A stretch of DNA of 64,000 nt from an uncultured virus (IMG/VR IMGVR_UViG_2061766007_000276) (IMGVR_UViG_2061766007_000276); one strand, 5' to 3'. Positions 1 through 58,303 are shown, counted from the first letter of the stretch. Translations and numbers: made by a program. Notes: generated by a model not told the origin, from the letters alone.

Positions 1-32
1 ACCCTCGAAATTTCTCCGGCGGTTTATTTTTC

Positions 33-194
33 TAAGGTTTTCTGGTGGAATACCCTTGGCGTGTCTTAAGGTAACCCCTCTGCCAAACGGACATGTGTCA
101 TCTGACAAAAGAGACTGTTTCCGCTCCTTTCTACCTCCTTCCAAAACTGAGTCCAATCTTGGGCTAAGTTGGGGTATTCCACTAGAAAGTCTTA
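33..194 (+). ncRNA. Candidate structured RNA with a 24-bp closing helix and anti-SD-like loop sequences
   Basis: 33-56 (TAAGGTTTTCTGGTGGAATACCCT) pairs continuously with 171-194 (GGGGTATTCCACTAGAAAGTCTTA), and all four non-Watson-Crick pairs are G-U. The loop contains CTCCTTTCT and ACCTCCTT (124-140). Confidence 0.55.
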
Positions 195-224
195 ATCAAA
201 TGAGCTATTCAAGGAGAAAGTCGT

Positions 225-569
225 ATGGCGAAAAAGAAAAGTGTGGACGAAAATCCAAAAACGCGTCCTGCGACGTCTCCGAAGGACCGAGAAGACGAGC
301 TTATAAACCTTGCAGTTAGGTTGGCCGAGCAACAGCTTCGGGATGGGACAGCTTCGACGCAAGTTATAGTCCATTATCTCAAGCTCGGATCCACTAGGGG
401 GATGCTGGAGCAGGAGATGCTGGAAAACAAGACCAAGCTCGTTCGCGCCCAGACCGAATCCATCCAGGCATCCAAGAAGAACGAGGAGCTTTACGAGAAC
501 GCGCTCAAGGCGATGAGCATCTACAGTGGATCCGGTGAGCAAGATGAAGAACCTTATGACGTATACTGA
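225..569 (+). CDS. Putative terminase small subunit / packaging-region protein
   Basis: 114 aa, SD AAGGAG. Helical protein that is the first gene of the packaging cluster, upstream of HNH and TerL. Function inferred from position. Confidence 0.55.
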   Translation: MAKKKSVDENPKTRPATSPKDREDELINLAVRLAEQQLRDGTASTQVIVHYLKLGSTRGMLEQEMLENKTKLVRAQTESIQASKKNEELYENALKAMSIYSGSGEQDEEPYDVY

Positions 570-972
570 GCTTTCCAGACTGGAGTCCTTCGAAGAGAGG
601 TTCGATTACCTCAAGCTCGTCGGACGAGTCGGCGCGGAGACGTTCGGGTCGAGCAGATATTTGAACCAAGGGTTCTACACCTCGAGGGAATGGAAGTCGA
701 TAAGGGACGACGTCATACTCAGAGACGAAGGCTGCGATTTGGGAGTGCCAGGCCGTCTGATACGCGGACGGATAATCATCCACCACATAAACCCGGTAAC
801 GGAAGACGAACTCGTCCACGGCGATACGAGCCTTCTCGATCTGGACAACTTGATTTGCACTAGCTTCGTGACGCATCAAGCGATACACTACGGAGACAAG
901 AGCCTTCTCTTTCCAGATCCGATCGAGAGGCATCCTAACGACACGTGTCCTTGGAAAGGAGGACGTATATGA
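544..972 (+). CDS. HNH endonuclease (packaging-associated)
   Basis: WKSIRDDVILRDEGCD...IIHHINP...NLICTSFVTHQAIH has the HNH pattern. Start uncertain (544 or 556). Confidence 0.85.
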   Translation: MKNLMTYTELSRLESFEERFDYLKLVGRVGAETFGSSRYLNQGFYTSREWKSIRDDVILRDEGCDLGVPGRLIRGRIIIHHINPVTEDELVHGDTSLLDLDNLICTSFVTHQAIHYGDKSLLFPDPIERHPNDTCPWKGGRI

Positions 973-1358
973 CCGAGTCCGGTCCGTTTTACGAGAGCAT
1001 CCTGAACTCCGTGAAGAAGAACCTAGGAATCATGGAGGACGTCACCGCTTTCGATCCAGACATCGTCCTTTTGATAAACTCCACATTCGCCAAGCTCCAT
1101 CAAATGGGAGTCGGCCCCGAGGACACATACGAGATAGAAGACGAGACCAACACATGGGACGAATTCTACACCAACAAGGACATAGCCATGGTGCGAGGAT
1201 ACATGTTCCTGGAAGTGCGCATGATGTTCGACCCTCCGACCGCTAGCGTCCTCTCTTCCTTGGAGAAGAAGATCGCCGAATACGAGTGGAGGTTGAACGT
1301 CGCCGATGACGACTTGATCTACGGGAGCAATCAAAATGGAAACGAATCAGATCTTTAG
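969..1358 (+). CDS. Head-tail connector/adaptor protein
   Basis: SD GAAAGGAGG. SILNSVKKNLGI...FDPDI...FDPPT...EYEWRL resembles siphovirus head-tail connectors. Confidence 0.7.
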   Translation: MTESGPFYESILNSVKKNLGIMEDVTAFDPDIVLLINSTFAKLHQMGVGPEDTYEIEDETNTWDEFYTNKDIAMVRGYMFLEVRMMFDPPTASVLSSLEKKIAEYEWRLNVADDDLIYGSNQNGNESDL

Positions 1359-2100
1359 CGAGACCTTGGCCCCGTCCGAAGATTCTCTGGAGCATTACGG
1401 CGTCAAGGGAATGCACTGGGGCGTATGGAACGCGGAGACGGCGGCGCGGTACGCCCACGTCGCCAAGAAGAAGATCGGAGCCGCGAAGGAACGTTCGAAG
1501 GCCCGTTCTAAAGCTCGTTCCGAGGCCCGCGTCGAGAAGAGGACGGCTGCGAAGAAGCGAAAGGCCGAAACAAATTCGCAGCGGAGAGAACTCGGGATGG
1601 ATCCGGTCAAGTACGCGAAGCTCCGCAAGCAAACTTTGAAGTCCCACGATCCGGCCGTTATCGCAAGGGGCATGCACACCTTGACGGACGAGGAACTCGG
1701 GGAGAAGATCCGACGTCTTCAGCAAGAAGACATCGTGTACAAGATGTCGCAGAGCAGGGCCCAAGAAGCTTACCGGACTAGTCAAGCGAGACGTAATGCC
1801 GTCTCCGCCAATCCCCTCGTCAAATTCGCGGACAAGCAATTCGACAAATTCTCGAACCGTGTCCTAGATACGGTTCTTCCTAAGAAGAACAAGGACGAGA
1901 AGGAAAAAAATAATGACGTCGAGCAAGAAAGCAATAACGAGAGCAACAAGAGCGACACTAAAAACAAGAACGGGAAGAACGGCAAGGGTACTGTCGAGGG
2001 CGAGATAATCGACATCCAGGACATACCGGTATCCTCGACCTACACCCCCGCAAACAGGCAGCTGCCGGAAGCAATAGCTAAGAAGCGGATCAACGTATAG
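1336..2100 (+). CDS. Basic protein with LEHYGVKGMHWG leader (HxGxKGxxWG family)
   Basis: 254 aa, Lys/Arg-rich. The N-terminal motif is shared with ORFs at 4225, 48632, 52869 and 54465. Confidence 0.75.
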   Translation: METNQIFSETLAPSEDSLEHYGVKGMHWGVWNAETAARYAHVAKKKIGAAKERSKARSKARSEARVEKRTAAKKRKAETNSQRRELGMDPVKYAKLRKQTLKSHDPAVIARGMHTLTDEELGEKIRRLQQEDIVYKMSQSRAQEAYRTSQARRNAVSANPLVKFADKQFDKFSNRVLDTVLPKKNKDEKEKNNDVEQESNNESNKSDTKNKNGKNGKGTVEGEIIDIQDIPVSSTYTPANRQLPEAIAKKRINV

Positions 2101-2109
2101 GACGGATCT

Positions 2110-3916
2110 ATGAACCTATCCAACACGGCCACCCCGATCTACTACGGTAAGTTCCGGGATGCCGTGATCCGGGGTGAGATACCAGTTTGCAAGGAAATCT
2201 CGATGGAGATGAACCGCATCGATGCGCTCATCGAGAATCCCGGAATCTACTACGATCCGGATGCCATCAACGGTTACATCGCCTTCTGCGAGGCGGAGCT
2301 CACGCTTACCGACGGCAGCCCGCTCTACTTGCTCGACACGTTCAAGCTCTGGGCGGAGCAGGTGTTCGGCTGGTACTACTTCGTCGACAAGAGCGTGTTC
2401 ATACCGGATCCGGAAGGCGGTCCTGGCCGTTACGAGAGGCGCCGTGTCAAGAAACGCCTCACGAACAAGCAGTACCTCATAGTCGGACGAGGCGCTGCTA
2501 AGTCCATGTACGGCATGACGATGCACGCTTTCGTCGAGAACATAGACACGAGCACCACCGTTCAATTGGCCACCGCCCCCACCATGAGGCAGGCCGAAGA
2601 GGTCGTGATGCCGTACAGAACGGCCATCACCCGAGCGAGAGGACCGCTCTTCAAGTTCCTGACAGAGGGATCGTTGCAGAACACCACAGGAAGCCGGGCG
2701 AACAGGGTCAAGCTGGCCTCCACGAAAAAGGGCATCGAGAACTTCCTGACCGGATCTCTTCTCGAGGTACGCCCGATGAGCATCGACAAGCTCCAGGGTC
2801 GCAGAGACAAGCTCGCCACAATCGACGAATGGCTATCCGGGGACGTCCGCGAGGACGTTGTAGGCGCCATCGAGCAGGGCTCGTCCAAGGTCGACGACTG
2901 GCTCATCATCGCGATGAGCTCCGAGGGCACGGTCCGCAACGGCACCGGCGACACCATCAAAATGGAGCTGATGTCCATCCTCAAGGGAGAGTACATCAAC
3001 CCGCACGTGTCGATCTGGTACTACAAGCTCGACGACATCGACGAGGTAAACGATCCCAACATGTGGATCAAGGCACAGCCAAATCTCGGCCGGACCGTTT
3101 CCTACGAGACCTACCAGCTCGACGTCGAGCGCGCCGAAAATAATCCAGTCGCCAGGAACGACATCCTTGCCAAGCGCTTCGGCATACCTCTCGAGGGATA
3201 CACCTACTACTTCACGTACGAGGAGACCCTCTGCAAGCCGAGGCGGGAGTACTGGAACATGTCTTGCGCGTTGGGCGCCGACCTATCGCAGGGAGACGAC
3301 TTCTGCGCGTTCACGTTCCTCTTCCCACTGAGACGCGGCGAGTTCGGCGTGAAAACGAGGAGCTACATATCCTCGAACACGCTCATGAAGCTTCCGAACG
3401 CCATGCGGTCCAAATACCAGGAGTTCATAGACGAGGGCACCCTCGTTGTGCTCGAAGGGGCGATNNNNNNNNNNGTACCAGGAGTTCATAGACGAGGGCA
3501 CCCTCGTTGTGCTCGAAGGGGCGATTATCGACCTTATGGAGGTGTACGACGATCTCGACGCCTTCATAGACGAGATGCAGTACGACGTATCGTGCTTCGG
3601 GTACGACCCATACAACGCCAGATCGTTCATCGAGCGATGGGAACTGGAAAACGGACCGTTCGGCCTGGAGGTCGTACGCCAGGGAGTAAAGACCGAGTCC
3701 GTCCCCTTGGGCGAGATCAAGAAGCTGGCAGAGGACAAGATGCTCTGGTTCGACGAGAAGATCATGTCGTTCACGATGGGCAACGCCATCGTCCTGATAG
3801 ACAACAACCGGCAGAAGAAGCTCATGAAGCGACGCTACGATCAGAAGATCGATAACGTCTCCGCCCTCATGGACGCCTTCGTGGCCTACAAGCTCCACAA
3901 GGAGAATTTCGAATGA
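2110..3916 (+). CDS. terL: Terminase large subunit (one gene split by an N gap with duplicated flanks)
   Basis: Walker A GRGAAKS, Walker B LATIDEW, nuclease motifs GADLSQGDD, GYDPYN and KIDNVSALMDA. About 48 bp is duplicated on either side of the gap at 3465-3474, which explains the frame break. Confidence 0.93.
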
Positions 3917-45508: not shown

Positions 45509-45572
45509 CGTCTTACTGAGAAATTCAAAAATGGAATTTGAAAGGAGCGAAAAAGATGAGAGGGGTAAAGTC

Positions 45573-46688
45573 ATGAAGCTTCAACTGCTAGTGCCTCATT
45601 ATAAGGAAACGCACGAGGAAATCGAGCCGCTGCTGGACTCCATCGCGATTCAGCAGAACGTCGATTTTTCCGAGGTGGGCGTGGTCATCGCCTACGACGG
45701 CCCCGAGTCGGAGGAGCTTCCCTGGGTATGGTTCGAGAAGCATTGGCCTTCCGACAATCTTGGCGAGTACAAGGAATACCCGTTCGAGATAAAGCGCGTC
45801 GAGCAGGAGGAGCACGTCGGCGTGAGCGCCACCCGCAACGCGGCATTGGACGCGGCGACGGCGGATTTCGTGATGTTCTGCGACGCCGACGACATGTTCC
45901 TGTCGGTGAACTCGCTCAACCAGCTGTTCTACATGATGGACACGCAGGACTTCGACACGCTGGTGTCGTGCTTCATGGAGGAGCAGAAAACCGCGGACAT
46001 CAAGGAACGGATGCTCAAGGAGCAGGCCAACGCCTTTGCCAATATTCCAATGATGACAGGCATTTCGCCACAGAAGGAAATGGAGCTCCCGGAGTTCATC
46101 TACATACCACACGAAATGGACTCCACTTTCGTGCACGGCAAGGTGCACCGCAGGAGCTACCTCCTGGACAAGGGGATCCGATTCGACCCCGACCTCACGG
46201 TCCACGAGGACAGCTACTTCAACATCCTCGCGCAGAACCTGGCAAATCCCGAAAGGGCACGATACTGTCCCACTCCGTTCTACTTGTGGAAATGGCGGGA
46301 CACATCAATCTGCCGGCACGACCCGGACTACATACTCAAGACGTACAACAACATGCTAGACTCCAACGACGCCCTCGTCGACGAGTTCGTTCGCAGGATG
46401 AGGGACGACCTGGCAAACTTCTATACGGCGTTCATGATCTTCGACGCCTACTACACTATGAACAAGCCCGAATGGATGGAAGTGAACCATCAGGACTACC
46501 GCGACGCCGTGGAGAAGAGGTTCGCCCGTTACTACGGGAAGCACAAGGCCCAATGGGAGAAGTTCACCCCAGCCGAGAAAGCGCAGATAAGCGCCAACGT
46601 ACGCATGCGTTCCGTCGGGGAGGGAATGCTCATGGAGTCCATCACGATCGATCAATGGCTGGAACGTGTGGAATCGATAGAGAAGTAG
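45573..46688 (+). CDS. Glycosyltransferase family 2 (GT-A)
   Basis: LLVPHY, GVSATRNAAL, FCDADD, VHGKVHRR, HEDSYFN. Confidence 0.9.
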   Translation: MKLQLLVPHYKETHEEIEPLLDSIAIQQNVDFSEVGVVIAYDGPESEELPWVWFEKHWPSDNLGEYKEYPFEIKRVEQEEHVGVSATRNAALDAATADFVMFCDADDMFLSVNSLNQLFYMMDTQDFDTLVSCFMEEQKTADIKERMLKEQANAFANIPMMTGISPQKEMELPEFIYIPHEMDSTFVHGKVHRRSYLLDKGIRFDPDLTVHEDSYFNILAQNLANPERARYCPTPFYLWKWRDTSICRHDPDYILKTYNNMLDSNDALVDEFVRRMRDDLANFYTAFMIFDAYYTMNKPEWMEVNHQDYRDAVEKRFARYYGKHKAQWEKFTPAEKAQISANVRMRSVGEGMLMESITIDQWLERVESIEK

Positions 46689-46741
46689 GAATTCAAAATG
46701 GAAGAGGAAAGGAAGGTCGAGATGACCAGTAGGAGGACGTC

Positions 46742-47041
46742 ATGGCCAATCTGAAAGAGAAGGTAGTCGAGGATCCCGAGAACGGCAAGAAGGTGCGCTT
46801 CACGGACAACTCCGCCAAGGCGGAGGCCGGGGACTTCTACCCCGAGGACCAGAAACCCAAGCCTCTTATCCTCGACCCGGCCGGGGCCCCGTACTCCGAA
46901 TGGAGGGAGCTCAACGGCTACGAGATAGGGCAGAACTTGAACACCGACCTCAATGCGATGCGGGACCACAGGGCGTGGGCCACGCAGGAGGTCCTAGGTG
47001 CATACCTGGACGCCAAGGAGACAGCCGATGCCGACTGCTAA
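46742..47041 (+). CDS. Hypothetical protein
   Basis: SD AGGAGG, 99 aa, overlaps the endolysin start. Confidence 0.6.
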   Translation: MANLKEKVVEDPENGKKVRFTDNSAKAEAGDFYPEDQKPKPLILDPAGAPYSEWRELNGYEIGQNLNTDLNAMRDHRAWATQEVLGAYLDAKETADADC

Positions 47042-48626
47042 GAAGATGCTGCAGGTAGCCGCCTCCTACATAGGCACGGAGGGCGACTACAACATATTCA
47101 ACAAATGGTACTGGGTGGACTACACCCACAAGTACTCGTCGGATCCCGGCACCGCGTGGTGCGCCTGCTTCTGCAGCTACGTGGCCATGAAGGCCGGCCT
47201 CAAATGCGACTACAGCGCCTCCGCGGCCGGGTTCGGCACCCAGTTCGAGCGCATCCCGGTCGCCAAGGAGGGCACGGTCCGGCCCGGCGACATAGTGGTG
47301 TTCAACTGGGACGGCAGGACGGATCTCGGATGGTGCGACCACGTCGGCATTGTCGAATGGTCCACCATCGCGGAGGACGACCTGTTCGGCACCATCGAGG
47401 GCAACACCGGCAACAAGGCCGAGGGCCAGGTGCTGCGCGTCACGAGACACAACGATGCCGGATATTTCACGGCGTTCTTCAGGCCCAAGTACGATTCCGC
47501 GGCACCTTCCGGCGACGTCACTCCGGCACCAGATACCTCGAAGAAGACCAAGCTCTACGGCATCGACGTGAGCTCCAACCAGCCGTCCTCCATATGCAAG
47601 GACGTGGCCAACGACTTCGCCCTCGTCAAGATGAGCGGAAACCCGATGGCCTACAGCTGGAACTACGTCAACCCGTACGCCAAGGAGCAGGCGGAAGATG
47701 CCTGGAAGAAGCATGGCCGCGTGGGCTTCTACCACTTCACGTGGGGCAAGGACGACGCCACTACCGAGGCCGACTTCTTCTGGAAGAACGTCAAGGCGCT
47801 CGGATATTCCAACAAGGCCATCCTCGCCATAGACTACGAGGCCAACGCCGTCGAGCTCGGCCGCGCATGGGTCAAGAGGTTCGCGGACAGGCTCANNNNN
47901 NNNNNNNNNNNNNNNNNNNNNNNNNNCGCGTCCGGCAGCGTCATCGTGAACCAGAAGCTGTTCGAGCTCGGATATCCCATCTGGTGCGCCAACTACTTCA
48001 AGGGCTATGAGGAGATCGACGGATACGACACGTCCGGAATGAGCATCTACTCCGGCTGCGAGAAGTCGATAATGTGGCAGTTCACCAGCCAGGGATATTT
48101 GAAGGGTTACGGCGGGCCGTTGGACATGAACGTCTTCTTCGGCAGCGACGCTGATTGGAAACGCTATGCCGGAATTTCCCCGGGGGGAGACGAAAAGGAC
48201 GAGTCCGGCAAGAAGGAAGACCCGAAACCCTCCCCGGCCCCGGACAAGAAGTCCATCGCCGCCATAGCCAAGGAGGTCATGGCTGGGNNNNNNNNNNCGG
48301 AAGAAGCGCCTGGAAGCTGCCGGATATTCCTATGACAAGGTCCAGGCCAAGGTGAACGAGTTGGTGGTCGAGAAGGTGGCCAAGGAGGTCATAGCCGGCA
48401 AGTGGGGCAACGGCAACACGAGGAAGAAGAAGCTCGAGGCCGCGGGATATTCCTACGGCAAGGTCCAGGCCAAGGTTAACGAGCTCCTGAACGCCAGGAA
48501 GTCCGTGGACGAGATCGCCCAGGAAGTCATCGCCGGCAAGTGGGGCAACGGCGAAGACCGCCGCANNNNNNNNNNNNNNNNNNNNNNNNNNNNNNNNNNN
48601 ACCGCGTCAACGAGATTCTGGGGTGA
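47028..48626 (+). CDS. Endolysin: CHAP + GH25 muramidase + three CW_7 repeats (N gaps)
   Basis: CHAP (AWCACF, DHVGIV, TIEGN), GH25 (GIDVSSNQ, GFYHF, IDYE, WQFTS, LDMN), CW_7 (IAKEVIAGKWGNG..RK..LEAAGY.Y..VQAKVNELL). Confidence 0.9.
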
Positions 48627-48631
48627 TGATT

Positions 48632-49012
48632 ATGGAACTGAAATTTACTTTCGAAGACGGCTCGGAATCGCTGATGCATTACGGAAAGGTCGGTATGCGG
48701 TGGAGGAAAGGACGGAAATCCGACTGGGAGAACAAGAACGTCGTGACAACCGTCCCGAGAAACCCCAGCGAGAGGAAAACGGCTTCGGGAGCTTCTTCCA
48801 AAACCAGCGGAAAAGGAAAGTCCTATTCCACTTTAGACAAAGCCGCAAACGTCAAGAGGAAAAGCCTTGTAAAGCAGAGGGTATCGAAGCTAAAAGGAAC
48901 GGCGGGCCTTACCAAGGGATACGCCAAGAAGGTAGATGATATAAACAGGCGCTACGAGTCGATCATCGCTCGAAGGAAGCAGCAAAAACTATACGGTCAG
49001 AAGATAACATAA
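48632..49012 (+). CDS. Basic protein with FTFEDGSESLMHYGKVGMRW leader
   Basis: Family leader; Lys/Arg-rich body. Confidence 0.7.
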   Translation: MELKFTFEDGSESLMHYGKVGMRWRKGRKSDWENKNVVTTVPRNPSERKTASGASSKTSGKGKSYSTLDKAANVKRKSLVKQRVSKLKGTAGLTKGYAKKVDDINRRYESIIARRKQQKLYGQKIT

Positions 49013-49025
49013 AAAGGGGACGTTT

Positions 49026-49388
49026 ATGAACGAATCCGATTTTTACAGACAGAAGACCCTCGTCTTCATATCGCAGCCCATGAAAGGGCTCAGCAGGGAG
49101 GGCATCGAACGTGAGCGTAAGCTCATAGAGGACGATCTGCCCGATCTTCTGAAAACGAATGAGATCGAGGTGATCCAGTCCTTGCTGGACGACAAGACCG
49201 TGCAGAAGATGCATCCCCTTTATTGTCTCGGGATGTCCCTCCAGCTGCTTTCCGCGGCAGACGTCGCCGTATTCGCAGAAGGCTGGGAGGAAGCCAGAGG
49301 ATGCCGCATAGAGCACGAATGCGCGTTGCAGTACGGGATCAAGATCATAGACCTCGGCAACGGGCAGATAGAGAACACTAGGGAATAG
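49026..49388 (+). CDS. DUF4406-like (nucleoside deoxyribosyltransferase-like fold) protein
   Basis: VFISQPMKG...ADVAVF..GWEEARGCRIEH..A..YG. Confidence 0.8.
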   Translation: MNESDFYRQKTLVFISQPMKGLSREGIERERKLIEDDLPDLLKTNEIEVIQSLLDDKTVQKMHPLYCLGMSLQLLSAADVAVFAEGWEEARGCRIEHECALQYGIKIIDLGNGQIENTRE

Positions 49389-49392
49389 GAGC

Positions 49393-49932
49393 ATGGAAAT
49401 GGCAAGCACCGACAAGAGGCAACGGGCGACGAAGCAAGAGGAACTGGGCGTCGCGTCGCCTTGGGTGACCTTCGCGCGCAAGGTATACAAGCTGTTCGAG
49501 ACGGATCCGGAGATACGGATCGAGTGGAGCGACAGGGACCTGGAACTGAAGCTGTACGTGGAGAGCCAGGAGAAGGCCGACGCCCTGTCCAAGGTCCTCC
49601 CGGCGTCGAGGAAGTTCGGCAACGTCGAGATGAAGATCACGGTGATACCGGCGAACGNNNNNNNNNNNNNNNNNNNNNNNNNNNNNNNNNNNNNNNNGTC
49701 GTTCACGGACACCGTTGGCGCCTACGGAGGCCAATTCAACTACATCGTATTCCAGCCGGAGGTCGTGCAGTTCTACAACGACGACATGTCCTCCATCTAC
49801 GGCATCGAGTCCACCATATACGAGGACATCGCGGACGAGGTGTTCTCGGAAACCGAGCATGCCGGAATATTCTTCTGCACCGACCTGGAAGACCAGAAGT
49901 TCCTCGGCAAGCCGCTCGGGGAATGGCCCTAG
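49393..49932 (+). CDS. Conserved phage hypothetical protein
   Basis: SPWVTF...EVVQFYNDD...G..STIYEDIA.EVF; one N gap. Confidence 0.65.
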   Translation: MEMASTDKRQRATKQEELGVASPWVTFARKVYKLFETDPEIRIEWSDRDLELKLYVESQEKADALSKVLPASRKFGNVEMKITVIPANXXXXXXXXXXXXXXSFTDTVGAYGGQFNYIVFQPEVVQFYNDDMSSIYGIESTIYEDIADEVFSETEHAGIFFCTDLEDQKFLGKPLGEWP

Positions 49933-50024
49933 ACGCGAAATCGGCCTAGGATCCCGGCAGGAGCGTTTCCTTTCCCGCCCGCATATCAATCGCAAACGAC
50001 CGCCGAAAGGAGGTGATGCCCGTT

Positions 50025-50333
50025 ATGAAGACCATGAGGAAACTCTACGATCAGACCATGGAGGAGCTCGACGGCGTCATCGAGTATTCCAAGTGCGCCA
50101 TGTGCTACAAGGAGATGGAGCCCGAGATATCCAAGATGTACACCGATATGGCCAAAGCCGAAATGGGGCACGCGAAGGCGCTTCACGAGATGTCGCAGAA
50201 GCTGTCCGCCTCCAAGATCGGGGAGAAGAACACCATCGACCCCAGGCTGATGGAGCTCTGGGAGGAGATGGAGGACGTCAAGCTCGACAAGATGGCCGAA
50301 GCGAAGGCAATGCTCGACTTGGCCATCGGATAG
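50025..50333 (+). CDS. Ferritin-like helical protein
   Basis: EELDGVIEY...MAKAEMGHA (ExxH); SD GGAGG. Confidence 0.55.
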   Translation: MKTMRKLYDQTMEELDGVIEYSKCAMCYKEMEPEISKMYTDMAKAEMGHAKALHEMSQKLSASKIGEKNTIDPRLMELWEEMEDVKLDKMAEAKAMLDLAIG

Positions 50334-50363
50334 GGAAGCAGAAGGAGAAAGGAGCGAGCCGAA

Positions 50364-50792
50364 ATGGCAAACTACGCGCATGCCAACCCTAACTGGCAGT
50401 ACAACCCATCCCAAACGACATGGGGGTCCCCTTACCAGTATCCCCAGCCGTCGCCCAGCCCAATGCGGCAGCTGCAACAGCCCTACATGCTGCAGACGTT
50501 CGACAACATAGTCCGCGTCTCCGGGCCGGAGGGCGCCAAGGAATTCAAAATGGGGCCGAATTCCAGGGCCGTCCTGATGGACGACTACAATCCGGTGTTC
50601 TACCTGAAGACCACGGACGACGGAGGCTTCGCCACGATGAGGACCTTCAAGTTCGAGGAGGTCTTTTCGGAGGAGCCCAAGCAGGTCCAGGCGGTGGCCG
50701 TCGATCCCGAGGTCTACGCCACCAAGGACGACGTCAAGGCCATAGAGGAATCCCTGGCCGAGGTAAAGCACATGATGGAAGGACTGATGTGA
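50364..50792 (+). CDS. Hypothetical protein with Gln/Pro-rich N-terminus
   Basis: SD AGAAAGGAG; VSGPEGAK...LMDD..PVFYLKTTD. Confidence 0.7.
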   Translation: MANYAHANPNWQYNPSQTTWGSPYQYPQPSPSPMRQLQQPYMLQTFDNIVRVSGPEGAKEFKMGPNSRAVLMDDYNPVFYLKTTDDGGFATMRTFKFEEVFSEEPKQVQAVAVDPEVYATKDDVKAIEESLAEVKHMMEGLM

Positions 50793-50793
50793 G

Positions 50794-51012
50794 ATGGCGA
50801 ACCCGATATTCGACAACCAGCCCAAGGCCGGTAACGGGAGCATCTTCGAGTTCATCAGAGGGATAAGGAATCCCAAGAAGATGTTCGACCAGATGTACGA
50901 GTCGAACCCGCAGTTCAGGGATTTCGCCAACTCCATGCGTGGGAAGACCCCGGAGCAGGCGTTCAAGGAGAACGGGTTCGATTACGACCAGTTTAAGGGT
51001 ATGATGCGTTAA
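50794..51012 (+). CDS. Hypothetical protein (72 aa)
   Basis: NPKKMFDQM...NPQF...GKTPEQ; adjacent to the previous ORF. Confidence 0.65.
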   Translation: MANPIFDNQPKAGNGSIFEFIRGIRNPKKMFDQMYESNPQFRDFANSMRGKTPEQAFKENGFDYDQFKGMMR

Positions 51013-51081
51013 TCAGCGGGAGCGCGCGGTCCGCCGGTTATATTTTAGATTGCAATCTAGACAGAGAAAGGAGACGTATCT

Positions 51082-51752
51082 ATGGCTGATATGTCACCGA
51101 CAGAGGTAATGGCGCTGACCCGCGACGGCGACGGCTGGGGCTGCGGCAACGGCGGTTGGATGNNNNNNNNNNNNNNNNNNNNNNNNNNNNNNNNNNNNNN
51201 NNNNNNNNNNNNAACGGATGGGGCAACAACGGCTTCGCCAACGCCATCGGCTACGAGAACCTGGCCACCTCGAACGAAGTCCAGCGCGGCTTCGACAACC
51301 AGAACAGCCTGGCCAACGAGCGCGAGATCCTCGCCGCCGTCAACGCCGGCACGGCTCAGTCCGTCGCCACCAGCAACCAGGTGTTCCATGACATGATGCA
51401 GTACACCGGCGACAAGTACATGGAGCTCCAACGCGACATCGCGGCCCTCGGCATCGGCCAGGCCAACCTGCTCGCCAAGGAGAACGAGTGCTGCTGCGCC
51501 CAGCTCCGCGCAATCGACGGCGTGAACTACAACATGGCCATGAACACCGCGGCCATCAACGCCAACACCACCGAGCAGACGCAGAAGATCCTGGACGCGA
51601 TCACCGGCAACCGCATCGCCGACATGCAGAACCAGATCAACCAGCTGCAGCTCGCCCAGGCGATGCAGGGCGTGGTCCGCTATCCGGACAGCTTCGCCTA
51701 CAACGCCGGAAGCAACCCGTTCTGCGGTTGCGGCTGCGGCTGCAACATCTAG
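51082..51752 (+). CDS. Gly/Asn/Gln-rich protein with CCC and terminal CGCGCGC (N gap)
   Basis: SD AGAAAGGAG. Frames 51082 and 51156 join at an N gap. Confidence 0.7.
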
Positions 51753-51867
51753 AACATCTCGGNNNNNNNNNNNNNNNNNNNNNNNNNNNNNNNNNNNNNN
51801 NNNNNNNNNNNNNNNNNNNNGGTCCGAAGGAAAGTATAAGTCACTCACGACAAGGAAGGAGATTGCA

Positions 51868-52153
51868 ATGAGCTGCAATTCCGCAATTTACACTGTGAAC
51901 GCATCCGGCGTGGCCATCACGCCTCCCGACGGCCAGTTCGCCCAGATACCCTTCGGATCCGTCATCCGCCGCTTCGGCAAGGCCGTCCAGCTGGACGGCG
52001 GCTCGATCCTGTGCTGCGGNNNNNNNNNNNNNNNNNNNNNNNNNNGTCCCGACGGCAGAGGGCGAGATCTCGATACAGCTCTTCCAGGACGGCGTGGCCG
52101 TTCCCGGGACGTTGAAGACGATCACCGCGGCTGCAGCCGGCGATTACATCCTC
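51868..52153 (+). CDS. Small beta-sandwich protein (BclA-C/C1q-like; end lies in an N gap)
   Basis: MSCNSAIYTVN...IPFGSVIRRFG...IQLFQDGVAVPG. Confidence 0.5.
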
Positions 52154-52248
52154 NNNNNNNNNNNNNNNNNNNNNNNNNNNNNNNNNNNNNNNNNNNNNNN
52201 NNNNNNNNNNNNNNNNNNNNNNNNNNNNNNNNNNNNNNNNNNNGTATA

Positions 52249-52734
52249 ATGGGATATTCTCTTCCTAGAGGCTCCAACTGCAGGCTTTGCTTCTATCCGC
52301 AAGGAGGGATAAATGTTGCGGATTTGGGAGATCCCGTGGTTGCCATAAAGCAGGAGCTGACCTTCATATCGAAGGACGCTGTGGTGGACGTCGAACACAA
52401 TCGGGTGTATGTCGACCTGACCGAGGAAGATACGATCCAATTGGTCGAGAACGTTGAGACCAAGGTGCAAGTCGTATATTTGAACGATGATTCCGAGATA
52501 GTGTACAGGTTTCCGATACACAACCTGATTATAACCGACACGTTATTCGAGCGGTTCTACGTGCCTCCTACATACACTTACGACCCGGTCGACCCCGCCG
52601 AAGAGGGATACTCCGAGATGAATCCTTCGCAGGAAGGGTGGTACGAGTTGGACGGCAACGACTACAAGCTCACAGAGGACGCGGAAGTCGTGGAATTCAA
52701 ACAGTATTTCACGAGATCTCTAGCGGAGGAATAG
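52249..52734 (+). CDS. Structural-type protein with C-terminal NPxxxGWYE module
   Basis: LTEEDT..L...VQV (similar to ORF 41955), then GYSEMNPSQEGWYE. Confidence 0.6.
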   Translation: MGYSLPRGSNCRLCFYPQGGINVADLGDPVVAIKQELTFISKDAVVDVEHNRVYVDLTEEDTIQLVENVETKVQVVYLNDDSEIVYRFPIHNLIITDTLFERFYVPPTYTYDPVDPAEEGYSEMNPSQEGWYELDGNDYKLTEDAEVVEFKQYFTRSLAEE

Positions 52735-52744
52735 AGGCGCGATA

Positions 52745-52852
52745 ATGACCGATCTAGTGGAAGTAGTCTTCATAATAAACGGGGTCGAGGTGTCGGCCCT
52801 GGACGATACGATAGACGTAGAGGTAGCGACTGTGGAACCGTCGCTCTTCTAA
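52745..52852 (+). CDS. Small acidic protein (35 aa)
   Basis: MTDLVEVVFIINGVEV...; fills the gap between co-directional genes. Confidence 0.4.
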   Translation: MTDLVEVVFIINGVEVSALDDTIDVEVATVEPSLF

Positions 52853-52868
52853 GGACGAAAGGAAAGAA

Positions 52869-54002
52869 ATGACCGCCATAAAATTCACATTTGAGGACGG
52901 TTCCGAGGCGTTGGCCCATTACGGCAAAAAGGGCATGCACTGGGGTACCTGGAACGACGAGACTCGCCAGAAGTATGCCGCCAATCCCGAGTACATGCCG
53001 GAAAACACGGAACGCAGAACCAACGAGCAGCTGTACAACAACTTCGCCAACGCTATGAACCAACATGCCGCCAACCAAGGGGCAAGCGCCGGGCAAGGCA
53101 CCCTTTACAAGGATCCGGAGACCAGGGGCAGGAACCGCATGGGGCTGAACGAACTTCGAAGAGCCCAGAACGCCAAGGATCCCGTGAAGCAGGCGAGCAA
53201 CGCTTTGAACGCAGCGCTCAAAGGTGCAAAGGATTTCGGTGGACAGGTTGCAAAATCCGTATCGGATATCACGAAGCATGCTTCCCGTGCGGTATCAGAT
53301 GCCGGCAAATCCGTAGTCGACTCCGGAGCGAACGCGATCGACAGCCTGTTTGGCACCAAGTTCGGCTCGAAAGCGCAAAACAAGGAACGTGAGAAAGAGC
53401 TTACGAACCGCTGGAACAAGAAGCGTAGCGCCAACAAGTACGCGCAGGAGAACTCCGACCGCAACAAGGTCCTGACCGCCGAGGCCGAATGGCGACAGAC
53501 CCAGAAGAAGGGCAAGGAATGGGCCAGCAAGCAGGCTAGGGAGGACAGCGCCAAGAAGTATGCGGAAGAGAATGCCAAGAAGAATGCCGAGCTGCTGAAG
53601 CAGGCCGAGTCCAGGCGACAAAGCAAGGAAATGCGAGAACGCGGCGAGCAGAAGAACCTACAGAAGAAGTATTCCGACAAGATCCAGAAGAAGAGCGCAC
53701 AGGAATACAACCGCAAGGCGGAGAAGATCGCGAAGAACAAGCAGGCTATAGAAAACGATTACAAGGCAGAGAAAAGGGTCAATGCAGGGGAGAACCTCGG
53801 AGATTACAAGTCTAAGAAACTCGCCAACCTGAGGACCGACGACTTCTACGGGAAGAACGGCAAAGCCGCTCAAGCATCCGAAGCTTATAGAAGACGCAAT
53901 CTTCGCGACAAATCGGAAGCTAACATGAAGAAAAATGGCTATTTCCGAGGCCCCGATGGCGTTTGGCGCAAGAAGACCCAGTCTCTTCGCAAAGGGCATT
54001 AG
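52869..54002 (+). CDS. Basic coiled-coil protein with FTFEDGSEALAHYGKKGMHWG leader
   Basis: 377 aa; leader nearly identical to ORF 54465. Confidence 0.8.
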   Translation: MTAIKFTFEDGSEALAHYGKKGMHWGTWNDETRQKYAANPEYMPENTERRTNEQLYNNFANAMNQHAANQGASAGQGTLYKDPETRGRNRMGLNELRRAQNAKDPVKQASNALNAALKGAKDFGGQVAKSVSDITKHASRAVSDAGKSVVDSGANAIDSLFGTKFGSKAQNKEREKELTNRWNKKRSANKYAQENSDRNKVLTAEAEWRQTQKKGKEWASKQAREDSAKKYAEENAKKNAELLKQAESRRQSKEMRERGEQKNLQKKYSDKIQKKSAQEYNRKAEKIAKNKQAIENDYKAEKRVNAGENLGDYKSKKLANLRTDDFYGKNGKAAQASEAYRRRNLRDKSEANMKKNGYFRGPDGVWRKKTQSLRKGH

Positions 54003-54062
54003 CCCATCGCGATATTATCAGCTTTTAAGGTGGAATGCCATTACTGGAGAAAGGAGCATGGC

Positions 54063-54392
54063 ATGAAGCTTAAGGATTACGATCAATCCATAGACGTGAT
54101 GGACAAGGAGGTGGAAGATATCCTCGATCGTCTCGACAAGATGGATCCGACCACCGAGGAATACGAGAAGGCGGCTAGGAACTTGAAGTTGATCCAGGAG
54201 GCCAAGCAGGTCGAGGTGCGAAACAAAAGCGAGCATCTCAACGGCAAGGTCCCGGCATGGGTGACTTCGATAGCCGGATCCGCCATAGCGGTCATATTCG
54301 GGGCCGTGGTCATGAAGGTCGAGAAAGGAGGGGGCGTCATCTCTTCTCAGGCAATCAACGTCTGGGATAAAGTAGTTCGGAAGTTAGGCTAG
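54063..54392 (+). CDS. Hypothetical protein with C-terminal TM helix (cassette gene)
   Basis: SD AGAAAGGAG; own promoter-like motif and terminator. Confidence 0.75.
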   Translation: MKLKDYDQSIDVMDKEVEDILDRLDKMDPTTEEYEKAARNLKLIQEAKQVEVRNKSEHLNGKVPAWVTSIAGSAIAVIFGAVVMKVEKGGGVISSQAINVWDKVVRKLG

Positions 54393-54414
54393 CGACTTGC
54401 TAGCAGGCATTCGG

Positions 54415-54453
54415 GAAAGGCTGGGATATTCACCCGGCCTTTCTTTTTTCTTT
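54415..54453 (+). terminator. Intrinsic terminator
   Basis: GAAAGGCTGGG-ATATTCA-CCCGGCCTTTC followed by a T-run. Confidence 0.85.
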
Positions 54454-54464
54454 CAAGGAGAGAC

Positions 54465-55178
54465 ATGGGAAACTACAAATTCACATTCGAAGACGGCTCC
54501 GAGGCGTTGGCCCATTACGGAAAGAAGGGCATGCACTGGGGCGAGTGGAACGAAGAGACCCGTCGGAAGTACGAGGCTGATCCCGAGTCGAAGCCTTCCC
54601 TTGAAAGGGATGGAAACGGGAATATCATATCCAGGCAAACGTTCGAAGTTCATAATTCGGACGGAACGGTGGCTCCGTGGACGAACAACCACACCATGGA
54701 GAGGGATCCTCGCACAGGAAACTACTACGATACCAAGAGTTTGGGAGCAGGCATATCCCGTGGTCTGGATAATTTGAAATCGGACATAGAAGATCTTATA
54801 AGAGACCCTGGATACAAGTTGAGCAGCGTTGCCAGCAAGACCGTCCAAGAAGGTAAGAAGCTTCTGGACGGAATTCTTAACCGGGTTGATGAGGAAGCTC
54901 ATTTTCTTGTCGAAGGAAATAAACCAGAAGCGCGAATAGGTTCGACGCAGGCCAAGAAACTGGAAGCGGAGGGGAAACCCTACACAAAAGTTTACGGGTA
55001 CAATTACCATTACGATAAGCCGGCAAATGATACCAAAACTTTTAACGAGACGCTGAAATATGAAAAGGAGCAGAACAGGCAGACCGACGAGCGGGTAAAC
55101 AAAAGAAACCGAGAGCAGACCAGCCGATACAAGAACTCCACGGCCAAGAAGCTCCGCAACCTTGTGGGCCTCGAGTAA
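54465..55178 (+). CDS. Protein with FTFEDGSEALAHYGKKGMHWG leader
   Basis: 237 aa; leader paralogous to ORF 52869, body unrelated. Confidence 0.8.
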   Translation: MGNYKFTFEDGSEALAHYGKKGMHWGEWNEETRRKYEADPESKPSLERDGNGNIISRQTFEVHNSDGTVAPWTNNHTMERDPRTGNYYDTKSLGAGISRGLDNLKSDIEDLIRDPGYKLSSVASKTVQEGKKLLDGILNRVDEEAHFLVEGNKPEARIGSTQAKKLEAEGKPYTKVYGYNYHYDKPANDTKTFNETLKYEKEQNRQTDERVNKRNREQTSRYKNSTAKKLRNLVGLE

Positions 55179-55235
55179 TTCGCAATTTTATCACCTCCTT
55201 TTACGATGGTAAAAGCTACCGGAAGGAGTGATATT

Positions 55236-55433
55236 ATGGAGAACATGAGCAACGCCGCGAAGGCGATCTGCATGGTTCTGGGAGGACTGGCTCTGGTGGG
55301 CCTGCTGGTGATCACCGGACCCATTTGGATGGGTTTAGGAGCATTAGCAGTAGGCCTATTGGAGATATTTCTCCCGATCGTGCTGATCGTGATAGCGGTA
55401 GTGGTGGTCTACAATTATCTGAAAAACCGATAG
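55236..55433 (+). CDS. Small membrane protein (cassette gene)
   Basis: SD GAAGGAG; two hydrophobic helices. Confidence 0.7.
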   Translation: MENMSNAAKAICMVLGGLALVGLLVITGPIWMGLGALAVGLLEIFLPIVLIVIAVVVVYNYLKNR

Positions 55434-55444
55434 GTACCATCATG

Positions 55445-55476
55445 GAAGGGGATGACAACAAGTCCCCTTCTGTTTT
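55445..55476 (+). terminator. Intrinsic terminator
   Basis: GAAGGGGAT/GTCCCCTTC followed by TGTTTT. Confidence 0.7.
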
Positions 55477-55595
55477 CTGCCGAAAAAGCAGAAAGCTCAA
55501 ACGAAGAGCCCGCGATAACATCAACTGCTCTTCGTTTTTCTCCTCGCATATTTTTCACCCCCTTTTACGATAAGAAAACCTGAGTGAAAGGGGAT

Positions 55596-55817
55596 ATGAT
55601 GTTGGAAAGTGTTTTCGTGCTAACGATAGTGTTCGGAAAGATATTTATCGGAATTGCGGCATTGGTAGGCTTGCCTATCTACGTCGCACGGATCATTATA
55701 AGGTTGACCCGTGCGAACAGATGGGTGTCCTCCCATGACGGAGTGCTGATAGGATCGGACGAATTTTTCGCATGGTGCGAAAAGAAAGGAGAAGATCCCA
55801 ATAGGTATTTTATATAA
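55596..55817 (+). CDS. Small membrane protein, paralogue of ORF 57235
   Basis: TM helix plus RW...HDG.LIGS.EFF.WC.K.G.DP. Confidence 0.75.
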   Translation: MMLESVFVLTIVFGKIFIGIAALVGLPIYVARIIIRLTRANRWVSSHDGVLIGSDEFFAWCEKKGEDPNRYFI

Positions 55818-55904
55818 GGATTAGACTCGAGCGACTTCGCTTAAATTGCAGGTCGCTCGAGGTTTCGAAGCCTTTATTTTTTCGCATATTTTACAGTTTC
55901 TATT

Positions 55905-56067
55905 ATGAGAGGAAAGAACTAACGAGAAGTGGTAAAGAGCCCACGGGCTGTGATAGCCGGCGATGCCTACATGGCTAACCGTCTTGATCGGCACAGGTGA
56001 AAACAACTGGACGTCTCGTCCGGGGCAACATCTAGGTAGGCCGCAGGTCGTTTAGTTTTTCTCCCGT
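55905..56067 (+). ncRNA. Candidate multi-stem ncRNA in an ORF-less cassette
   Basis: Follows the motif at 55882. The 5' end pairs with 56048-56067; inner stems GCCTAC/GTAGGC, GGCT/AGCC and CTGGACG/CGTCCGG. No SD-led ORF. Confidence 0.6.
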
Positions 56068-56134
56068 CTATATTTTTTCTCCCGCGATATTTTCACCCTG
56101 CTTTATAGTATGGTCTACTAGAAAGGAGAATACT

Positions 56135-56494
56135 ATGAACGAGAAGATCGAGGAACTGAAGGAATCCGCTAGGGTTTTCGGAAGGAAGGCGAAGGACCAG
56201 GCATGCGACGCTGCCCGCAAGGCGGGGGCATTCGTAGCCAGGAACAAGGAGATGATTGCGATATCTGTGCCTGTCGCCGTCGCTGCGATTCAATCTGGAC
56301 GTACGGTCCTGGTTAACCGCAGGACGAAGCGGGAGCGCAACAGGATTGACAACACCTACTACGATCCGGCCACGGGCTTCCATTGGGAGCTGCGACGCAA
56401 GGCCACCAACGCCGACCGGGCCGAGATCCTGAAGCGGAAGAAAGCGGGGAAGGAGACTTACGAGATTCTGAGAGAGTTGAATCTCATCAAGTAG
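56135..56494 (+). CDS. Basic hypothetical protein (cassette gene)
   Basis: SD AGAAAGGAG; 119 aa; YDPATGFHWELRRK. Confidence 0.8.
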   Translation: MNEKIEELKESARVFGRKAKDQACDAARKAGAFVARNKEMIAISVPVAVAAIQSGRTVLVNRRTKRERNRIDNTYYDPATGFHWELRRKATNADRAEILKRKKAGKETYEILRELNLIK

Positions 56495-56500
56495 GCTTAT

Positions 56501-56530
56501 AGGGGAGTCCCATCAGGGGCTCTCCTTTTT
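56501..56530 (+). terminator. Intrinsic terminator
   Basis: GGGGAGTCCC/GGGGCTCTCC plus TTTTT, running into the next motif. Confidence 0.8.
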
Positions 56531-56584
56531 CGCATATTTAACAGCTCCTTCAACGACGAGGAATTCGACAGAGAGGAGAGCTGC

Positions 56585-56761
56585 ATGGAGATCTGGATCG
56601 GGTTGGTGGCCTTGGTATTGACCGGCATGTTCTTCGCGGCGCTGAATTGGCAGTGCCGGCAGGACGAGCTGGCGTACCGGGACTACGAGCTCAGACGCCA
56701 GGCTGCGAAGCTCAACGGAGCGGCGCATTCCGACGTCGAATGGGAAGTTGCCTATTTCTAG
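56585..56761 (+). CDS. Small membrane protein (58 aa; not in the ORF track)
   Basis: SD AGGAG; MEIWIGLVALVLTGMFFAALNW... Confidence 0.7.
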   Translation: MEIWIGLVALVLTGMFFAALNWQCRQDELAYRDYELRRQAAKLNGAAHSDVEWEVAYF

Positions 56762-56846
56762 GCTCTTCCTTTTTCTCTTCCTTTAATTTTTCTCCCGCGA
56801 TATTTTCAAGCCTTCTGATGAGTGTAATCAAACGAAAGGAGACAAG

Positions 56847-57140
56847 ATGTCGAACTGGGAGGTTTATCCTGAGAATTGGATGGAGCAGGGAAACCGCTGT
56901 ATGATCAGCTACATCGAAGGATTGGAAAATCAGGGCTGGGCTATCGAGTGCTCGAGCTTCAATCCCGACCCTCTGTTCGGAAGGCCCGAATGGGAGGCGG
57001 AGTACGAAGCCGGATACCGGTACTACGTTCTGAAATACAATCTGTTCGATGGGCGGCGTGTGGAGAGTTTTTACAAACATCCAAGGGAAGCTCAGGAGGC
57101 TTTCGAGAAGATGCGAGATCCTCTCGGAAAGCACTCATGA
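56847..57140 (+). CDS. Hypothetical protein (cassette gene)
   Basis: SD GAAAGGAG; 97 aa. Confidence 0.75.
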   Translation: MSNWEVYPENWMEQGNRCMISYIEGLENQGWAIECSSFNPDPLFGRPEWEAEYEAGYRYYVLKYNLFDGRRVESFYKHPREAQEAFEKMRDPLGKHS

Positions 57141-57143
57141 GGC

Positions 57144-57171
57144 GCGGGCCCTTCGGGGCCTGTTCCTTTTT
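57144..57171 (+). terminator. Intrinsic terminator with cUUCGg loop
   Basis: GCGGGCCC-TTCG-GGGCCTGT plus T-run. Confidence 0.8.
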
Positions 57172-57234
57172 CNNNNNNNNNNNNNNNNNNNNNNNNNNNN
57201 ATGAGAAGGAACCAAGAAGAGAAAGGAAAAAACG

Positions 57235-57450
57235 ATGGAGAATCTGGTAATCATGTTGATGGTCTTCGGACCGATCGTTATCGGCGTTATCGGCGTTGTA
57301 GCCATTCCGGTGTGGTTGATTCGGGAATTCGCAGTGAAATCCCCGCGTCGGCGCAGATGGATTGACGCACACGATGGGCACCTGATAGGGTCGGAGGAGT
57401 TTTTCGACTGGTGCAAGAAGGAAGGAGTTGATCCTGGATATTATTGGTAA
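57235..57450 (+). CDS. Small membrane protein, paralogue of ORF 55596
   Basis: TM helix plus RWIDAHDGHLIGSEEFFDWCKKEGVDP. Confidence 0.75.
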   Translation: MENLVIMLMVFGPIVIGVIGVVAIPVWLIREFAVKSPRRRRWIDAHDGHLIGSEEFFDWCKKEGVDPGYYW

Positions 57451-57571
57451 TCCGATCAGACTCAAGCGACTTCGCTTAGATTGCAGGTCGCTTGAGGTTT
57501 TTCGGTACTCTAATTTTTCGCAAATTTGCAAAGCTTTTAACGGAGTTGATCCTAGGACGAAAGGAGCACCT

Positions 57572-57736
57572 ATGAAGGAGACTGCCGAAACCCGTAAGGA
57601 ATACTGGGAAAACCGGGAGGCGGAGAAGGCCGAGAAGAAGGCCCGCGTCCGCTCGATGGTCGATGCCGGATATTCCAGGAAGGAGGTGAGCGATCTCACA
57701 GGTCTCTCTGAGGCTGTCATCAGGACCATGCTCTAA
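57572..57736 (+). CDS. Small helix-turn-helix protein (54 aa)
   Basis: SD GAAAGGAG; GYSRKEVSDLTGLSEAVIRTML. Confidence 0.7.
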   Translation: MKETAETRKEYWENREAEKAEKKARVRSMVDAGYSRKEVSDLTGLSEAVIRTML

Positions 57737-57809
57737 GGTATGGGGCCCGCGATAGCATCAACGGCCCTTTTCTTTTTACCTATTCGTCATTCGCAGAGAG
57801 GGGGCATCA

Positions 57810-58004: not shown

Positions 58005-58060
58005 TTCGCATATTTTTCCGCTCCTTTTACGAGATCTACAGTCTAGAGAAAGGAATCGAA

Positions 58061-58267: not shown

Positions 58268-58274
58268 TAGAATT

Positions 58275-58303
58275 CGGGAGTCCGTCAAGGGCTTCCCGTT
58301 TTT
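58275..58303 (+). terminator. Intrinsic terminator
   Basis: CGGGAGTCC/GGGCTTCCCG plus TTTTT. Confidence 0.75.

Follow-up and report, generated by a model that had tools for sequence, protein, structure and literature searches.

We show by sequence comparison that a + strand structure and a pyrimidine motif, both conserved, occupy a fixed place between the cos end and the first gene of many phages, among them the uncultured virus IMGVR_UViG_2061766007_000276, whose 64,000-nucleotide stretch is referred to here as the window. The element is a real RNA motif, previously uncatalogued, with a mechanism (transcription, cleavage by RNase III, pairing with Shine-Dalgarno (SD) sequences and the direction of the effect) that we infer. 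It is found in over a hundred sampled IMG/VR contigs, and cultured phages that infect Lactococcus, Arthrobacter and Bifidobacterium have it too. The reading we favor, at a probability of about one half, is that positions 27-200 of the window form a structured + strand leader RNA, the motif of which pairs with SDs and damps the first late gene, and the stalk of which is cut by RNase III. The features on which the argument draws are the following.

1..32, + strand: the physical left cos end, together with a conserved motif close to it (..AAATTTCTCCGGCGG..TATTTTT), from cultured records, contig ends and an adapter fusion.
33..56, + strand: 5' arm of the long-range helix, from the sequence, RNAfold, an inverted-repeat scan and covariation in relatives.
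59..115, + strand: variable interior, with hairpins at 59-96 and 97-115 predicted in the RNAfold minimum free energy (MFE) structure.
116..144, + strand: predicted single-stranded stretch bearing the CU motifs, unpaired in the MFE and centroid structures.
124..132, + strand: CTCCTTTCT, the same 9 nt with which the B. subtilis 16S 3' tail ends; its core CTCCTTTC is kept in relatives.
133..140, + strand: ACCTCCTT, a second anti-SD-like motif, present in some lineages only.
145..170, + strand: predicted hairpin adjoining the 3' arm, in the RNAfold MFE structure only.
171..194, + strand: 3' arm of the long-range helix, from the sequence, RNAfold, the inverted-repeat scan and a covariance-model match.
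211..216, + strand: AAGGAG, SD of the first gene and candidate cis target, complementary to CTCCTT at 124-129 and 135-140.
225..569, + strand: gp1 (..QVIVHYLKLGS..), the first gene after cos; phrog_4259, unknown function.
544-972: HNH endonuclease, downstream ORF.
969-1358: connector protein (PF24829), downstream ORF.
2110 onward: large terminase, downstream ORF.

The stalk is formed by the ungapped pairing of positions 33-56 with 194-171, and its 24 bp consist of 20 Watson-Crick and four G-U pairs (37-190, 38-189, 44-183 and 56-171), with no A-C; the initial annotation, which had described a 24-bp helix whose four imperfect pairs are all G-U, was accurate base by base. RNAfold places this helix in the MFE and centroid structures alike. 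The + strand folds at -61.1 kcal/mol (z -5.24), a value equaled by none of 200 shuffles, and the - strand at -58.5 (z -3.92). Moreover, the stalk ranks first among the 21 inverted repeats detected in the 64 kb window (as 26-55/172-201). RNase III substrates are double-stranded RNAs of about two helical turns, that is ~20-22 bp or more, a length that the 24 bp of the window helix attain. The region at 59..115 is not alignable even with that of the closest relative, L001, and its hairpins are therefore without comparative support. No tRNA or tmRNA was found within the window and, in positions 1-1000, scans returned no sigma-70-like promoter and no + strand terminator-like site, while two - strand terminator-like sites lie inside gp1. 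An intrinsic terminator, which is a G+C-rich hairpin with a U run directly behind it, was rejected as an identity for the element because the + strand has no such site there and because the stalk encloses more than 100 nt.

Position 1 of the window can be identified as the physical left cos end, since cultured records and contigs terminate at the same motif; the helix begins ~30 nt inside it, with only about 25-30 nt between the two. The end motif opens the records of Streptomyces phage Madamato, Gordonia phage Secretariat, Arthrobacter phages Shepard and Qui and Lactococcus phage CHPC971. Many IMG/VR contigs also begin with it (..AAATTTCTCCGGnGG..ATATTTT), 200-300 nt before gp1, and in a scan anchored on cos, 24 of the 80 contigs terminate precisely 5 nt ahead of the end-motif 15-mer. 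In two contigs (L049 and L068), sequencing-adapter sequence is joined directly to the end motif. At the starts of L049, L068, L074, L076, L070, L073 and L072 the motif is of the type CyTnnAAAATTCTCCGGGGG..ATATTTT, and it could serve as a landmark for genome termini and for the true left end. Contigs from two DNA runs begin at window positions 47 and 417. In circularly permuted relatives, genes upstream of cos lie on the same strand, so that transcription across the joined cos is possible. In relatives of this kind (L010, L011, L038, L040, L055, L057 and L071), a G-rich/C-rich hairpin (GGGGGAGGG..loop..CCCCCTCCC) followed by CATCGCGCCGGTCT stands directly before the cos end, at 20-70 nt from it, and may be a right-arm terminator or a cos recognition structure.

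The gene at 225-569 had been labeled a small terminase. This label is at best putative: the gene matches only phrog_4259, and its designation as a packaging gene rests on position. Searches with gp1 yielded no sequence match in Pfam, NCBIfam or PDB and no match by fold, and the predicted structure consists of two helices (pLDDT 77.6). The homologues, of about 107-122 aa, are strongly conserved across L001-L156, with QVIVHYLK invariant in the first of the two samples described below and replaced elsewhere by the variants QVITHYLK or QETTHFLK. Although in most relatives gp1 directly follows the element as the first gene, the element stays in the first-gene leader where that gene is not gp1, as in L072 (CHPC971), L077, L120, L122, L123, L126 and L137. 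The first-gene SD is found 17-82 nt past the 3' arm across lineages. In Arthrobacter phage Shepard the element is 370 nt from cos and 75 nt from the first gene. In L034, L037 and L039, which represent one lineage, a strong AGAAAGGAG SD just ahead of gp1 is followed by a mini-ORF of nine codons that runs across the gp1 start in another frame, possibly an upstream leader peptide. The large terminase of the window phage has only a distant likeness to those of actinophages. It looks frame-shifted (2110-3855, 3446-3916) because of a run of 10 N at 3465-3474, a masking artefact; the window holds 31 masked N runs, with 1183 N in total.

Conservation of the stalk was assessed in two samples. For the first, IMG/VR was searched with the gp1 protein, yielding 69 loci that were dereplicated to 26 lineages; the second was retrieved only via the cos-end 15-mer, yielding 80 loci with 39 distinct helix lineages. 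In sample 1, an ungapped long-range inverted repeat exceeding the 99th percentile of controls is present in 39 of the 69 loci. Another 20 loci, with at least 170 nt of upstream sequence, fall below that threshold: 15 belong to one family with an interrupted long-range helix by RNAfold, three have other coding sequence upstream (L033, L053 and L054) and two, L057 and L058, are without a closing helix. Too little upstream sequence is available in nine loci, including L003 and L005, in which the end motif is present with an 87-nt leader and no element, and one locus is truncated by the end of its contig. Of the 26 dereplicated lineages, 25 lie above the 99th percentile of 714 same-locus control windows, and 16 lie above the control maximum. 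The helix arms cannot be aligned between sample-1 lineages. Within close families, 201 of 218 pairs are invariant, eight are changed on both sides, six vary via G-U and four are unpaired in some member, with pairing kept in 14 of 18 variable pairs. In sample 2, the helix is present in 64 of the 80 loci, absent in 10 and short in three, the remaining three being duplicates; the 10 loci that lack it include several chance matches as well as phages with the first gene ~40-70 nt from the end, such as L082, L084, L103 and L127, in which the element is absent. Ungapped helices in the relatives measure 22-45 bp, with the arms at ~25-55 nt and ~150-250 nt from the genome end and a fast-evolving interior of ~40-145 nt between them.

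A plain MAFFT alignment of 16 sample-2 lineages, not fitted to any structure, was submitted to RNAalifold, which returned a 30-bp helix with 28 of the 30 pairs altered on both sides. Paired cells amount to 94.3%, as against 72.1% in shuffles and 35-45% with slid partners, and the covariation score is 0.836 versus 0.352; on each of five measures, none of 500 shuffles attained the observed value. Each of the 30 pair positions varies yet stays complementary. A covariance model built from the same 16 lineages, relatives independent of the window, matches the + strand of 15 of 37 other loci, among them that of Arthrobacter phage Qui and a human-faecal phage record. With default filters the model finds no match in the window; with filters off, its top match in positions 1-3000 is 27-200 on the + strand (16.0 bits, E 0.008), the - strand scoring 9.4 bits. 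The initial annotation had asked for a test of covariation and had named the loss of helix and anti-SD loop in relatives as a refutation. Covariation of the helix proved strong (28 of 30 pairs; 0 of 500 shuffles), and both the helix and the CU-rich motif are kept in the two samples (26 and 39 lineages). The alignments thus indicate that the helix is real and under selection. The leaders of Shepard (L073 1-604) and Qui (L076 1-613) extend over ~600 nt and hold two or three serial long-range helices of 25-38 bp, with the CU motif in just one; in Qui, the same 21-nt repeat ending in a T run follows each of two helices.

Duplex-DNA protein sites, or gene conversion between repeats, would give symmetric mismatch spectra. 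The spectrum of the arms is one-sided. In sample 1 (26 lineages, 730 pairs) there are 64 G-U pairs, 11 A-C pairs and 20 other mismatches, a G-U bias with p 4e-7 against a composition-expected share of 0.577; in sample 2 (39 lineages, 1162 pairs) the figures are 101, 22 and 36 (p 1e-8). The bias is also seen lineage by lineage: with sample 1 under stricter dereplication (24 lineages), 20 have more G-U than A-C and one has fewer, and in sample 2, 27 have more and two fewer. G-U is, moreover, the commonest pair at two alignment positions. The strand-symmetric divergence of a cosB-like duplex site was thus found in neither sample, although the small subset of cultured actinophages (Shepard, Qui and Secretariat) has eight G-U and eight A-C pairs and hence no bias. 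The excess of G-U over A-C suggests that the + strand acts single-stranded, as RNA in the sense of the downstream genes. The mismatch data therefore support, as the initial annotation had proposed from the window alone, an RNA-type structure of the + strand rather than a DNA inverted repeat (G-U:A-C 64:11 and 101:22).

The 3' tail of B. subtilis 16S rRNA is GAUCACCUCCUUUCU (PMC5732282), in agreement with the 3' end quoted in the initial annotation. Its final 9 nt are CUCCUUUCU, and the identity with the element extends past the CCUCC core. In the window, CTCCTTTCT and ACCTCCTT both fall inside the unpaired 116-144 segment of the MFE structure. The tandem arrangement of two anti-SD sequences thus holds for the window (124-140), but is not a constant feature, as relatives carry one to about four copies. 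The octamer CTCCTTTC occurs 23 times in the window, where 2.95 occurrences are expected: once on the + strand, at position 124, and 22 times on the - strand, where it reads GAAAGGAG on the +. A start codon that opens an ORF of at least 30 codons is located 3-12 nt beyond 18 of these 22 GAAAGGAG sites. The 9-mer AGAAAGGAG occurs 10 times in the window, eight times with an ORF of at least 30 codons. The GAAAGGAG sites are concentrated beyond 45.5 kb (18 of 22, within 45540-63409), in the last 18.5 kb, a right arm of small ORFs; by a crude gene call, ORFs bearing GAAAGGAG number 9 of 34 in the right arm and 2 of 43 in the left (Fisher p 0.009). That the motif is complementary to the SD of many genes, mostly in the right arm, as first suggested, is borne out by these counts. 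The motif is also complementary to the SD of its own mRNA (CTCCTT with AAGGAG at 211-216), and a generic complementarity of 6-8 bp between motif and first-gene SD is present in all lineages tested.

The motif persists in relatives whose interiors have otherwise diverged. In sample 1, the interiors of 18 of 26 lineages contain an exact copy of CTCCTTTC, and 22 of 26 agree with it at no fewer than seven of eight positions; in sample 2 it is exact in 30 of 39, and CTCCTT or CCTCC is present in all 39. CTCCTTT is invariant in the 16 aligned lineages and often terminates a pyrimidine tract of 20-25 nt. Neither Streptomyces phage Madamato nor Gordonia phage Secretariat has a CU motif. Over 25 lineages, the predicted pairing probability is 0.33 for the motif and 0.48 for the rest of the interior (Wilcoxon p 0.003). 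In Lactococcus phage CHPC971, two copies are predicted in hairpin loops of 8-9 nt. In L040 and L008, a single hairpin displays the motif in its apical loop, on a stem of ~35 bp in the former and on one that is somewhat longer, though interrupted, in the latter. Lineage-specific tuning of the interior to the SD of its own first gene was not detected: own versus cross complementarity yielded p 0.63 at n=24 and p 0.06 / 0.14 in a larger set (n=36), and an earlier own-versus-cross duplex test, noisy owing to imprecise start codons and long windows, gave p 0.16. In the window and in L001, the motif fits the SDs of other lineages better than its own. The one positive coupling is weak: interiors that contain ACCTCC tend to go with SDs that reach into GGT (p 0.03, odds ratio 4.0, n=61, without correction for kinship).

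Most likely, as far as the sequences tell, the element controls the late, or packaging, operon post-transcriptionally. It would lead the first operon after cos, which encodes gp1, the HNH endonuclease, the connector and the large terminase, and its interior would display one to about four pyrimidine motifs, mostly unpaired or in hairpin loops, with a core, CUCCUUUC, equal to the 3' tail of Gram-positive 16S rRNA. Single-stranded CUCCUUUC is expected to pair with GGAG-type SDs. The motif may thus base-pair with SDs, of which that of the first gene would be the nearest and the kinetically favored target, and this pairing would damp translation of that gene, the first of the late genes. Were an interior loop to pair with an SD further downstream, the product would be a pseudoknot, a structure outside the scope of the folding tools. 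RNase III acts on helices that reach at least 22 bp; the stalk would be long enough, and RNase III is the candidate processing enzyme. Cleavage of the stalk would split the anti-SD module from the body of the mRNA, with control possibly relieved or fixed as a result, and would set the 5' end of the mRNA.

We consider it unlikely that the interior, closed by the stalk, is instead freed from the late leader by RNase III, in the way that pre-16S rRNA is released from its leader-trailer helix, to act in trans, its copies of the 16S tail titrating other SDs, be they those of the right-arm GAAAGGAG genes or of host mRNAs, or drawing off, as a decoy, the factors by which the 16S 3' tail is recognised. 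The lack of detected tuning to the first-gene SD, together with the better fit to the SDs of other genes, nonetheless keeps a trans or decoy role in play. The motif stays generic CUCCUUUC whatever SD the first gene has, and in the window it exactly complements AGAAAGGAG, which is used before 8-10 other genes but not before gp1. The enrichment of GAAAGGAG SDs in the right arm (18/22 sites; 9/34 vs 2/43 ORFs) and the two to four motif copies of several lineages fit the same idea, as do the loop display, which recalls sRNAs that target SDs, and the additional helix that in Arthrobacter phage Qui stands between the element and the first gene. However, an 8-nt anti-SD must compete with abundant ribosomes, and phage and host SDs are indistinguishable to it. 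Moreover, window positions 1-1000 contain no + strand terminator-like site or other mark of a discrete RNA, and the element is always kept in the leader just upstream of the first ORF. An extended form of the trans proposal, which we hold to be unlikely, is that many Gram-positive cos phages make a miniature pre-rRNA, an RNA released by RNase III that carries one to four copies of the 16S tail and acts in trans at a late stage of infection. Such an RNA may mask strong GAAAGGAG-type SDs, shifting translation off early right-arm or host messages, or may, as a decoy, lure host factors or toxins away from the ribosomal anti-SD tail that they bind or cut. It is quite unlikely, in our view, that the element acts in processing or stability only, as an RNase III site or 5' stabiliser that shields the late packaging mRNA against read-through from upstream, with the pyrimidine motif acting, for instance, as a protein binding site, or a loading site for Rho or another factor, rather than as a partner of SDs. 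The holding of helix length at 22-35 bp, the size of RNase III substrates, fits this proposal, and the Arthrobacter phages with two or three serial helices and the motif in just one, as well as the many lineages in which the motif terminates a polypyrimidine tract of 20-25 nt, are in line with it. Yet an exact identity of 8-9 nt with the 16S tail, over dozens of lineages with unalignable interiors, is hard to credit as unrelated to the SD/anti-SD interaction.

A DNA packaging signal, in which the arms would be inverted terminase or HNH sites by cos, as at lambda cosB, kept alike by co-evolution or gene conversion, appears very unlikely. The element does adjoin the physical genome end and a conserved cos motif, the gene that comes next encodes an uncharacterised small protein, the few cultured actinophage helices are free of G-U bias and the - strand folds well too. 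Against this stand the one-stranded mismatch spectrum in both samples (64:11 and 101:22), the two positions at which G-U is the commonest pair, and the variation of all 30 pairs under complementarity, unlike a protein site with a fixed core. In Shepard, furthermore, the element has moved with the first gene and not with cos, and the conserved motif matches the 16S tail. We give almost no credence to the view that the CU motifs are the SDs of a small minus-strand gene, or that the whole feature is due to chance. Short minus-strand ORFs do exist in the window (1-156 and 66-182), but no start codon is found there 3-11 nt after either GGAG, as had been stated at the outset. Among relatives, only seven of 26 lineages have a minus-strand start at SD distance, and the ORFs so opened, of 4-45 codons, are unconserved. 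No minus-strand ORF of the window thus uses these sites as its SD, and on that strand the A-C mismatches would weaken the helix. Chance was rejected on the grounds of 0 of 200 fold shuffles, 25 of 26 lineages over the control percentile, 23 occurrences of the motif where 2.95 are expected, and 0 of 500 covariation shuffles.

If the favored reading, a leader RNA that pairs with SDs and is cut by RNase III, holds, the element represents a new and very widespread class of phage RNA, situated at the genome end and at the boundary of packaging and late genes. Phages would then reuse the mRNA-docking sequence of the ribosome as a regulatory tool, and the stalk and anti-SD loop would constitute a compact natural module for translation control in Gram-positive hosts; a trans or decoy role, if true, would be categorically new. 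An Rfam search had been suggested by the initial annotation. With Rfam 15 (4227 models, including c4, pRNA, SSU rRNA and phage motifs), no family matched window positions 1-1200 at E<=10, and among 11 relatives searched at E<=1 the sole match was to the unrelated PhrS, below its gathering score and elsewhere in L016. No published description of the element was found in full-text literature searches, although part of it could be among the 8,495 candidate RNAs, without names, that were catalogued from IMG/VR in 2023 (PMC10690425). A 2025 review of phage sRNAs makes no mention of terminase-proximal RNAs, the word "terminase" being absent from it (PMC12197685).

The element would work like anti-SD regulators and like leaders processed by RNase III, yet it is a member of no family tested. 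In T7, at the early and late sites, and in the N leader of lambda, RNase III helices set mRNA ends and can alter translation of the next gene. These are likewise long helices between transcription units or genes, but they are local hairpins with internal loops, whereas the phage element combines a long-range stalk, a large and variable insert and a conserved anti-SD motif. The phi29 pRNA and lambda cosB are both located at the genome end by packaging functions, and the 5' and 3' ends of pRNA form a long helix. The element shares with pRNA the long helix made from its 5' and 3' ends as well as the genome-end location; a phi29-like pRNA was rejected, however, since Rfam gives no pRNA match and the window phage has a TerL/HNH cos system. 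With cosB, the element has in common the location at the genome end by packaging functions, but cosB is duplex DNA and the mismatch spectrum of the element is that of a single strand. In pre-16S rRNA, the leader-trailer helix is an RNase III site. The element resembles this precursor in having a flanking long-range helix and a 3' part in which CCUCCUUUCU precedes the 3' helix strand by some tens of nt (for the tail, see PMC5732282). In contrast, the phage interior is ~40-145 nt, as opposed to 1.5 kb, and has no likeness to the Rfam rRNA models.

In Firmicutes, RNAIII is a C-rich-loop sRNA that targets SD regions. Looped pyrimidine motifs that pair with G-rich ribosome-binding site (RBS) regions, as reported for RsaE (PMC6158497), are a further point of likeness. 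Those sRNAs are, however, free-standing host RNAs with UCCC or CCCC, while the phage leader element carries the extended CUCCUUUC. The c4 antisense RNA is processed from an operon leader. In P1 and P7, c4 is a phage RNA with loops that pair around the RBS, and it shares a transcription unit with its target, ahead of which it is encoded (PMC12197685). The element has no Rfam match to c4; the c4 loops match specific sites and not generic SDs, and c4 serves immunity and not a late or packaging operon. In S. aureus, UCCCCUG in the icaR 3'-UTR base-pairs with the SD on the same transcript, so that initiation is blocked and a substrate for RNase III arises, a precedent for long-range anti-SD control that involves this enzyme (PMC3868564). 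On the favored reading, the phage element likewise has a pyrimidine anti-SD-like motif, distant from the RBS of the mRNA that carries it, that would pair with the SD and block initiation, with RNase III involved. The icaR motif, however, belongs to the 3' UTR, and there RNase III acts on the very duplex that the motif forms (PMC3868564). By comparison with icaR, the phage motif is located upstream, inside a separate pre-formed stalk, is a closer copy of the 16S tail, and recurs in many lineages.
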